From: Escherichia coli
GTDB taxonomy: Bacteria; Pseudomonadota; Gammaproteobacteria; Enterobacterales; Enterobacteriaceae
Direction: 5' to 3' (one strand)
Assembly: GCF_003018255.1 (NCBI RefSeq)
Contig: NZ_CP027440.1
DNA length: 64,000 nt
The stretch's first letter is position 1. Each line of letters begins with the position of its first letter. The notes beneath the pieces are model-generated. The model searched no databases, had not been told where the DNA came from, and was given only the letters and a program-made list of their open reading frames with translations. The translations under genes were made by a program, and so were the position numbers. Positions 2,305 through 22,348 of this stretch are shown piece after piece.

Positions 2305-3696
2305 ATGAACTTTCCATTAATTGCGAACATCGTGGTGTTCGTTGTACTGCTGTTTGCGCTGGCTCAGACCCGCCATAAACAGTGGAGTCTGGCGAAAAAA
2401 GTGCTGGTGGGTCTGGTGATGGGTGTGGTTTTTGGCCTCGCCCTGCATACCATTTATGGTTCTGACAGCCAGGTACTTAAAGATTCTGTACAGTGGTTTA
2501 ACATTGTTGGTAACGGCTATGTTCAACTCCTGCAAATGATCGTTATGCCGTTAGTCTTTGCCTCTATTCTGAGCGCGGTTGCCCGTCTGCATAACGCATC
2601 ACAGTTAGGCAAAATCAGTTTTCTGACCATCGGAACGCTTTTGTTTACCACACTGATTGCGGCGCTGGTCGGTGTGCTGGTCACCAACCTGTTTGGTTTG
2701 ACGGCTGAAGGTCTGGTTCAGGGTGGTGCAGAAACTGCACGTTTGAACGCCATCGAAAGTAACTATGTTGGTAAAGTCTCTGACCTGAGCGTTCCGCAGC
2801 TGGTCTTGTCCTTTATCCCGAAAAACCCGTTTGCCGATTTGACCGGAGCCAATCCGACGTCAATTATCAGCGTGGTAATTTTTGCCGCATTCCTCGGCGT
2901 AGCTGCGCTGAAGCTGCTGAAGGATGATGCGCCGAAAGGTGAACGCGTCTTAACCGCTATCGATACCCTGCAAAGCTGGGTGATGAAACTGGTTCGCCTG
3001 GTCATGCAGCTGACCCCTTACGGCGTTCTGGCGCTGATGACCAAAGTGGTTGCAGGTTCTAACCTGCAAGACATCATCAAACTGGGAAGTTTCGTTGTCG
3101 CGTCCTACCTCGGTCTTCTGATTATGTTTGCAGTGCATGGCCTTCTGCTGGGTATTAATGGCGTGAGCCCGCTGAAGTACTTCCGTAAGGTATGGCCAGT
3201 ACTGACGTTTGCCTTTACCAGCCGTTCCAGTGCTGCGTCTATCCCACTGAATGTGGAAGCACAAACGCGTCGACTCGGTGTTCCTGAATCCATCGCCAGT
3301 TTCGCCGCCTCTTTCGGTGCAACCATTGGTCAGAACGGCTGTGCCGGTTTGTATCCGGCGATGCTGGCGGTGATGGTTGCGCCTACGGTTGGCATTAACC
3401 CGATGGACCCGATGTGGATTGCGACGCTGGTCGGTATTGTTACCGTTAGTTCCGCAGGCGTTGCCGGTGTCGGTGGTGGTGCAACTTTCGCCGCACTGAT
3501 TGTGCTGCCTGCGATGGGCCTGCCGGTAACGCTGGTGGCATTGTTAATCTCCGTTGAACCGCTTATCGACATGGGTCGTACGGCGCTAAACGTTAGTGGC
3601 TCGATGACCGCTGGCACGCTGACCAGCCAGTGGCTGAAGCAAACCGATAAAGCTATTCTGGATAGCGAAGACGACGCCGAACTGGCACACCGTTAA
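2305..3696 (+). CDS. tcyP: L-cystine transporter (sodium:dicarboxylate symporter family) TcyP/YdjN
   Basis: 463-aa polytopic membrane ORF; RBS caggagaacgggg upstream. Confidence 0.85.
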
Positions 3697-15392: not shown

Positions 15393-15460
15393 AAACCGCC
15401 GATCCTGTCCACCGCATTACTGCAAGGTAGTGGACAAGACCGGCGGTCTTACGTTTTTTG
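15393..15460 (-). terminator. Long imperfect hairpin flanked by A-run and T-run; bidirectional-type intrinsic terminator downstream of spy
   Basis: CCGCCGATCCTGTCCAC ... GTGGACAAGACCGGCGG with flanking A6/T6 runs. Confidence 0.65.
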
Positions 15461-15469
15461 GCTGAAAGA

Positions 15470-15955
15470 TTATTCAGCAGTTGCAGGCATTTTACCTTTT
15501 GCCGCTGGACGTTCTGTCAGACGCTTCTCAAAATTAGCATTAAATTGCTTTTTCTGTTCCGGCGTCAGGATGTTGTAAATCTTGTTCTGGGTTTCCATGT
15601 GCGCCAGCATGTTAGCTTTGCGCTGTTCTTCCATTTTTGCGATCTGCGCTTCAGCTTTTGCTTTATCGAAGGTATCGCTGGCAATGATGTCATGCATTGC
15701 GCGGCGTTCTTCCAGCGGCGGACGTTTCATCTGGTCACGCTGGCCTTTCATGATTTCGCGGATCTGCTGTTTCTGCGCGTCGGTCAGGTTCAGGTCTTTG
15801 AACATCATGTCCTGATGCGGACCGAACTTGCCTTTGTGGTGCATCATCGGCTTCGCGTCAGCCGGTGCTGAGGTAGTGGTGTCTGCGGCATGGGCCAGGT
15901 TAGCCGCGCCAAGAGCCAGGGTAGAGGCAACAAACAGTGCAGTTAATTTACGCAT
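15470..15955 (-). CDS. spy: periplasmic ATP-independent chaperone Spy
   Basis: 161-aa ORF with signal peptide and Spy/CpxP-family sequence. Confidence 0.95.
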   Translation of the reverse strand: MRKLTALFVASTLALGAANLAHAADTTTSAPADAKPMMHHKGKFGPHQDMMFKDLNLTDAQKQQIREIMKGQRDQMKRPPLEERRAMHDIIASDTFDKAKAEAQIAKMEEQRKANMLAHMETQNKIYNILTPEQKKQFNANFEKRLTERPAAKGKMPATAE

Positions 15956-16092
15956 ATTCTATATCCTTCCTTTCAGTTATTTATTACGGCTTTCTTAAGT
16001 AGCGTGCCGTGTTGACGAGATTAACTTTACTGACTTTAGCGTCAATTAATCAGAGCAACGGTAAAACAATGAAAGTGTAAAAAACACTTTTG

Positions 16093-16110
16093 CGCCAATT
16101 ATGGAGAAAA
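16093..16110 (-). promoter_or_regulatory. BaeR-box-like site upstream of spy
   Basis: Minus strand reads TTTTTCTCCATAATTGGC, matching the recalled BaeR consensus TTTTTCTCCATDATTGGC; a second TCTCCATC copy at about 16121-16129. Confidence 0.6.
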
Positions 16111-16284
16111 AAAGAAAATTTGATGGAGAGTAATGAGAGAATATTACAACACGATGATTTTGCAGAGATTATGAAGAACTATACCGGATGACTGGTGATA
16201 AATAAAGCAAATAACCAGGATTAATCTGTATTAATTTATAAGAAAGTAACTTAATACCCGCAGAATGATTTCTGCGGGTAAGTA

Positions 16285-22348
<6,064 letters not shown>

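Follow-up and report, generated by a model that had tools for sequence, protein, structure and literature searches.

The 329-bp spacer upstream of spy holds, in the sense of the gene, a sequence that resembles the recognition site of the regulator BaeR, and the locus raises the question of whether this 18-mer is the BaeR operator of spy and how much of the surrounding DNA belongs with it. As a whole, the evidence is best explained if the 18-mer is the promoter-proximal BaeR operator of spy within a conserved control region, a reading to which we give a probability of about 0.88. That operator is one element in a conserved control region of ~220 bp, which is an array of regulator sites. A BaeR box at spy is already known and ordinary, as is the CpxR site beside it, and since the spy box has been in print since 2005 to 2008, nothing new comes from the box itself. 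A full-text search for published papers giving the actual spy site sequences found none. What is modestly useful is an architecture wider than the 18-mer, comprising three putative proximal units, a distal tandem pair, and a far-upstream block, together with an in vivo ChIP-exo signal that lies on the distal pair and not on the textbook 18-mer. spy is a standard reporter of Bae and Cpx envelope stress and its product is a major periplasmic chaperone; which upstream element carries which signal matters for the design of reporters and biosensors and for the reading of natural promoter variants.

The 18-mer upstream of spy

Between positions 15400 and 16400, the window (the whole 64-kb stretch of Escherichia coli DNA that was analyzed) matches several RefSeq chromosomes at 100% identity, and this DNA is present in 5,425 of 5,426 complete genomes. 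The control region differs from that of K-12 MG1655 by two substitutions (16132 and 16247), both outside the motifs discussed here, and by no indels, so experiments in K-12 apply directly; K-12 coordinates are obtained by adding 1,809,670 to those of the window. An Rfam search (E<=1) of 15400 to 16400 returned no known RNA elements, giving only two sub-threshold chance hits. The features of the region are collected in Table 1.

Table 1. Features of the spy control region in window coordinates, with identity to the window sequence across 79 distinct upstream regions (information content in bits where calculated)
Feature	Sequence	Position	Strand	Identity	Remarks
spy CDS		15470-15955	-		161 aa; ORF and RefSeq annotation; ATP-independent periplasmic protein-refolding chaperone Spy; the regulated gene
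spy start codon	ATG	A at 15955	-
Putative -10	TAATCT	16018-16023	-	85%	16-bp spacer to -35
Putative -35	TTGACG	16040-16045	-	100%	Proposed from conservation; inside BaeR peak_1 to within the edge base
CpxR box	GTAAAACAATGAAAG, GTAAA-N5-GAAAG	16061-16075	+		Putative; 2 mismatches to GTAAAN5GTAAA; inside conserved block 16056-16090
CpxR block		16061-16086		95%, 1.76 bits
Proximal BaeR box (P3)	TTTTTCTCCATAATTGGC	16094-16111	-		Exact match to BaeR consensus; half-site core TCTCCAT (16101-16107), then AATTGG
BaeR core of P3	TCTCCATAATTG	16096-16107		89%, 1.67 bits
Middle unit (P2)	ATTTTCTTTTT	16109-16119	-	80%	Putative degenerate half-site, one helical turn upstream of P3
Second copy (P1)	CTCTCCATC	16122-16130	-	74%, 1.14 bits (for CTCTCCAT)	22 bp (two helical turns) upstream of P3 core, in helical phase; family consensus aCTCTcCA
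Distal tandem repeat (D1 + D2)	TCTTCATAATC + TCTGCAAAATC	16156-16177	-	72%	11-bp period; two exact TCTNCANAA matches
Intervening spacers				48-55%
astE		16285-17253			Upstream neighbor of spy

The first-pass annotation had noted a BaeR recognition sequence on the minus strand at 16093 to 16110, about 140 bp upstream of spy, and a second copy, TCTCCATC, at 16121 to 16129. In its essentials this was right. RefSeq annotates identical DNA as spy followed by astE, and the 18-mer is an exact minus-strand match to the published consensus 5′-TTTTTCTCCATDATTGGC-3′, credited to Nishino et al. 2005 (quoted in PMC3799227 and PMC3915751); spy is BaeR dependent, and BaeR ChIP-exo peaks fall in the same intergenic region. 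The proximal end of the 18-mer lies 139 bp from the A of the ATG (span, 139 to 156 bp, or 139 to 175 bp with the second copy). The second copy, GATGGAGA on the plus strand, is likewise present and conserved. The coordinates were off by 1 nucleotide and are 16094 to 16111 for the 18-mer and 16122 to 16129 for the second copy.

The exactness of the 18-mer match is expected and partly circular, since spy was itself, with mdtA, acrD, and ycaC, one of the sources of the consensus; the four BaeR sites reported at the time were those of spy, mdt-bae, acrD, and ycaC (PMC2731931). When the K-12 mdtA and acrD promoters are read directly, TTTTTCTCCATDATTGGC is close to the majority sequence of the spy, mdtA, and acrD sites. 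A second BaeR motif, TCTNCANAA, is credited to the study of metal-induced spy expression by Yamamoto et al. 2008 (quoted in PMC3799227). Exact matches to it occur near spy on the minus strand at 16099 to 16107, that is, within P3, and at 16158 to 16166 and 16169 to 16177, and the second proximal copy (TCTCCATCA) differs from it by 1 mismatch. The 18-mer is unchanged in K-12, O157:H7, and strain C1, and P1 and the 18-mer are both intact in the divergent E. coli strains sampled (O157:H7 and strain C1).

Layout and conservation of the control region

A Spy protein scan, with one genome per species, recovered 80 spy loci from Escherichia, Citrobacter, Salmonella, Enterobacter, Klebsiella, Raoultella, Kosakonia, Cedecea, Buttiauxella, and other genera. 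Their 79 distinct upstream regions were aligned with MAFFT, and identity was measured against the window sequence. In most of the 80 loci the best match to the 18-mer was in spy sense, at -143 to -172 from the ATG, and had 0 to 6 mismatches; 70 to 72 bp farther upstream there was often another match, a weaker one. The near-invariant positions of P3 are C16106, C16103, A16102, A16100, and the TTG (79 taxa). Almost no indels occur from 16131 to 16020, which indicates that spacing across this interval is constrained. Read from the alignment, this phylogenetic footprint supports a candidate operator independently of the BaeR consensus.

The footprint extends upstream of P3. A phased pair CTCCAY-N16-CTCCAY occurs once in the 64-kb window, at spy, with 0 mismatches. 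In E. coli, its two strong copies, P1 and P3, stand 22 bp apart with the weak unit P2 between them. P2 reads TTaTCCTTATT in other genera; across the 79 taxa its C16114 is invariant and the neighboring T positions are conserved. It occupies the position at which mdtA and acrD have a CTCC partner half-site, 10 to 11 bp upstream. The family consensus of the cluster is aCTCTcCA-cgat / ttTaTcCTTaTT / TTtCTyCAyAATTGgc, and by sequence the cluster reads as three putative units that repeat every 11 bp; the middle unit is degenerate, and in E. coli (TTTTCTT) it is more degenerate still.

The distal repeat, which the first-pass annotation lacked, is TCTTCATAATCTCTGCAAAATC in full (16156 to 16177) and TtCTtCAtAAT ... 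CTtcaAAATCA across taxa. The tandem TCTNCANAA-NN-TCTNCANAA is found once in the 64-kb window, at this repeat, with 0 mismatches. In strain C1, D2 is TCTGCTAAATC instead of TCTGCAAAATC (aligned to 16161), the only within-species change in a BaeR unit among the strains sampled.

Nearer the gene, the GTAAA repeats at about 16058 to 16080 had been proposed as a possible CpxR site with imperfect spacing. The place is upheld; the repeats lie in a conserved block, spy is CpxR dependent, and the spacing turns out to be canonical. On the plus strand, GTAAA occurs at 16061 to 16065 and 16077 to 16081 and TGAAA at 16070 to 16074; the block from 16056 to 16090 thus contains an additional GTAAA, as well as an A-tract. 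Its near-invariant core, CTTTCAnTGnTTTAC, is the complement of GTAAAnCAnTGAAAG, i.e., GTAAA-N5-GAAAG, in the spacing of the CpxR consensus GTAAA-N5-GTAAA (De Wulf et al. 2002, quoted in PMC7889517). This settles the concern over spacing; the other perfect GTAAA, at a distance of 16 bp, is out of register. The CpxR unit is the most conserved block after the invariant -35 hexamer. No CpxR ChIP-exo peak was called at spy (PMC7657598).

The putative -35 and -10 hexamers would place the spy transcription start at ~16010 to 16013. A consensus scan for sigma-70 promoters and terminators from 15900 to 16320 called nothing. Its threshold was at least 4/6 matches per hexamer and 9/12 in all, and it missed the TTGACG/TAATCT pair because these hexamers score 5/6 and 3/6, under the threshold. 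A good -35, a poor -10, and activators upstream fit an activator-dependent sigma-70 promoter. Counted from the predicted start, the CpxR box would lie at ~-50 to -64, the 18-mer at ~-83 to -100, and P1 at ~-111 to -119, so that the proximal cluster (16094 to 16130) would span ~-83 to -119 and the distal pair ~-145 to -166. The minus strand also carries a short conserved stem, ACGGC...GCCGT (15986 to 16010), at the 5′ end of the predicted spy mRNA. One of its pairs covaries from G-C to A-U in 3 of 20 sequences, and its loop is variable and at times expanded; it may be a 5′-terminal stabilizing hairpin.

At the other end of the region, a minus-strand block from 16201 to 16230 reads TACAGATTAATCCTGG-N6-TGCTTTATT, with the pattern T-A-C-R-GA-TTAW-TCC-TGG ... 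TGCTTTATT across taxa. This block is as strongly conserved as the BaeR sites and is kept in spy loci that lack astE upstream; we found no published assignment for it. Of the 79 taxa, 75 have its RGAN4TCY core in the same alignment columns, and the 22.7 kb of aligned upstream DNA contains no further copy. The RcsB box is a pseudo-palindrome, TN(G/A)GAN4TC(T/C)NA (PMC7913699), and overproduction of RcsB raises spy expression 3.9-fold (PMC2731931). A full RcsB box at 16216 to 16229 was rejected, the 14-mer with its outer T and A being found in 0 of 79 taxa; RcsB is a candidate only, because the 3.9-fold induction of spy and the RGAN4TCY core fit.

Directly upstream of the distal repeat is a conserved -10-like hexamer, TATAGT (TATAnT across genera; 16178 to 16183, minus strand), with a weak TTTATT 17 bp farther upstream. 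It could be a second promoter or the flank of a BaeR site. The sigma-54 consensus requires a GG-to-GC distance of 11 nt, and a sigma-54 reading of CCTGG-N6-TGCTTT was rejected on its distance of 7 nt. A sigma-70 reading with TTGCTT as the -35 and TATAGT as the -10 was rejected on its spacer of 21 bp, and a weak sigma-70 reading, TTTATT-N17-TATAGT, is possible, though unsupported. Tentatively, and with the odds against it, the far-upstream block and TATAGT might together form a conserved module, either an undescribed operator for a third input, with RcsB as the candidate, or a second upstream promoter. If either were the case, spy would integrate three pathways through a defined cis-element. 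A GC-rich inverted repeat, ACCCGCAGAA-N4-TTCTGCGGGT (16256 to 16279), follows closely after the astE stop codon and is presumably the terminator of the ast operon; the terminator scan missed it because its T-run is weak.

A natural variant of the region was found in the clinical E. coli strain ECE170 (NZ_CP196906.1, locus ~2537 to 3300), where an IS1 is inserted at ~16092/16093, just upstream of the CpxR block. Every BaeR-type box is gone from this locus, the CpxR box and core promoter are kept, and other genes stand in place of astE. ECE170 is thus a natural promoter-truncation variant, and at least one clinical E. coli strain is without BaeR boxes.

BaeR occupancy and the competing readings

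That spy depends on both BaeR and CpxR, and that BaeR is bound in vivo in this region, has been established by others. BaeR ChIP-exo gave two peaks upstream of spy (PMC7657598, Data Set S2). Of these, peak_1 (K-12 1825677 to 1825711, window 16007 to 16041) falls on the core promoter, and peak_2 (K-12 1825823 to 1825843, window 16153 to 16173) overlaps the distal repeat and has the higher signal-to-noise ratio of the spy peaks, 9.25 (PMC7657598). No BaeR peak was called on the 18-mer itself (K-12 1825764 to 1825781) in the same data set (PMC7657598). In 5% ethanol, the log2 fold change of spy was -5.76 in the baeR knockout and -3.04 in the cpxR knockout (PMC7657598 supplement), and by qRT-PCR spy was up 75-fold with BaeR overproduction and 39-fold with CpxR overproduction (PMC2731931). 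Induction of spy by chlorite is absent in a baeR deletion strain, and a Salmonella spy-gfp fusion requires both baeR and cpxR.

BaeR is a winged-helix response regulator of the OmpR/PhoB type. In the mechanism that we propose, envelope stress (indole, zinc, ethanol, chlorite, or spheroplasting) would activate the kinase BaeS, and BaeR would be phosphorylated. Phosphorylated BaeR would then bind head to tail on tandem (T)CTCCAY-type half-sites ~11 bp apart. At spy, these would be the proximal cluster (16094 to 16130), made up of CTCTCCATC, a degenerate T-rich middle unit, and TCTCCATAATTGG, and the distal tandem pair TCTTCATAATC/TCTGCAAAATC (16156 to 16177), which would also take BaeR. We infer head-to-tail binding on both clusters because AdeR and DzrR have tandem half-sites and mdtA and acrD a CTCC partner. 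CpxR would bind GTAAA-N5-GAAAG, and the two regulators would independently recruit or stabilize RNA polymerase, through contacts that are likewise predicted, at a weak sigma-70 promoter whose TTGACG is good and whose TAATCT is poor.

The chief rival reading would have BaeR work in vivo from the distal repeat (16156 to 16177) alone and would put the conservation of the 18-mer down to something else: a second activator, for example, a bend or UP-like element, or cooperative filling at low affinity. It is compatible with the ChIP-exo data, in which the spy peak of higher signal-to-noise ratio (9.25) coincides with the distal repeat and the 18-mer has no called peak; the distal repeat also has the canonical 11-bp tandem geometry, and the Nishino 2005 18-mer consensus is reportedly a bioinformatic derivation. 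However, peak calling in ChIP-exo can miss internal sites in a multi-protein array, and within the 18-mer there is a perfect copy of TCTNCANAA, which is credited to the work of Yamamoto et al. 2008 on spy. The alternative is further weakened because, at mdtA, a BaeR ChIP-exo peak covers the equivalent 18-mer and because the core of the spy 18-mer is better conserved than the distal repeat (89% versus 72%). On balance we consider it unlikely that the distal repeat acts by itself.

The converse would make the 18-mer alone the whole BaeR site and leave TCTCCATC, farther upstream, and the distal repeat as accidental or nonfunctional likenesses; it is the minimal reading of the first-pass annotation and agrees with a published consensus that describes a single 18-mer. 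It is more improbable still, given that both P1 and the distal repeat are kept from genus to genus with constant spacing, that a BaeR ChIP-exo peak lies on the distal repeat, and that OmpR/PhoB-type relatives bind tandem half-sites. As for a chance match in AT-rich intergenic DNA, the AT-richness of the spacer can be cited for it and nothing further. Against it, the zero-order expectation is 5.6e-6 exact matches per window; the 18-mer is the sole match in the 64-kb window at <=3 mismatches, where 0.23 such matches are expected; and TCTCCAT, expected 0.035 times on that strand of the spacer, is seen twice. The gene that follows is moreover BaeR dependent, conservation of the site extends over 79 taxa, and a chance origin of the 18-mer is excluded. 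The preferred reading, with the 18-mer as the promoter-proximal operator, combines what is established elsewhere about BaeR and CpxR with what is observed here, namely, the exact sequence, its uniqueness, its conservation, and its fixed spacing. Points that weigh against it are the lack of a called peak on the 18-mer, the circularity of the consensus match, the absence of a called CpxR peak at spy, and the 22-bp separation of the two strong proximal copies, where mdtA, acrD, AdeR, and DzrR have 10 to 11 bp.

Comparison with related operators

The closest counterparts of the spy box are those of mdtA (mdtABCD-baeSR) and acrD. In K-12 these are TTTTTCTCCCTTATTGGC and TTTTTCTCCACGATTGGC, respectively, and each agrees with the spy box at 16 of 18 positions. 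All three boxes have a T-run, a TCTCC core, and an ATTGGC tail and are oriented in the sense of their gene. At mdtA, BaeR peak_5 (2153931 to 2153967) covers the box (2153945 to 2153962) together with its upstream partner half-site, and, as at spy, a second BaeR ChIP-exo peak lies on the core promoter (PMC7657598). The arrangement differs in that mdtA and acrD have their CTCC partner 10 to 11 bp upstream, whereas the well-conserved partner at spy stands 22 bp upstream, beyond a degenerate unit. The mdtA and acrD boxes are also near the core promoter, at 54 to 71 bp and 72 to 89 bp from the ATG, compared with 139 to 156 bp at spy, where, unlike at mdtA and acrD, a CpxR site is placed between box and promoter and an extra distal tandem pair is present. 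These differences leave the classification of the spy site as a BaeR box unchanged.

The putative CpxR box of spy resembles the consensus GTAAA-N5-GTAAA in its length of 15 bp and its canonical spacing; it is extremely conserved, and the gene that it precedes is Cpx dependent. It differs in its second pentamer, which is GAAAG (2 mismatches), in lying on the strand opposite to spy, and in the extra GTAAA 16 bp off and out of register.

A wider comparison is with AdeR and DzrR, OmpR/PhoB-type regulators of RND efflux or envelope-stress genes that bind tandem CTCCAY half-sites repeating every 11 bp. The DzrR footprint (Dickeya, Burkholderia desAB) is CGGTTCTCCATCATATCTCCATATT, with tandem half-sites TTCTCCATCATATCTCCATATT (PMC10052836). 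For AdeR, the DNA of the cocrystal, from the adeR-adeABC spacer of Acinetobacter baumannii, is AAGTGTGGAGNAAGTGTGGAG (reverse complement, CTCCACACTTnCTCCACACTT), and the crystal structure has two DNA-binding domains on the repeat (PMC5766154). These are different proteins from different organisms, and each of their sites consists of two perfect adjacent repeats, whereas the repeats at spy are imperfect and split into two clusters.
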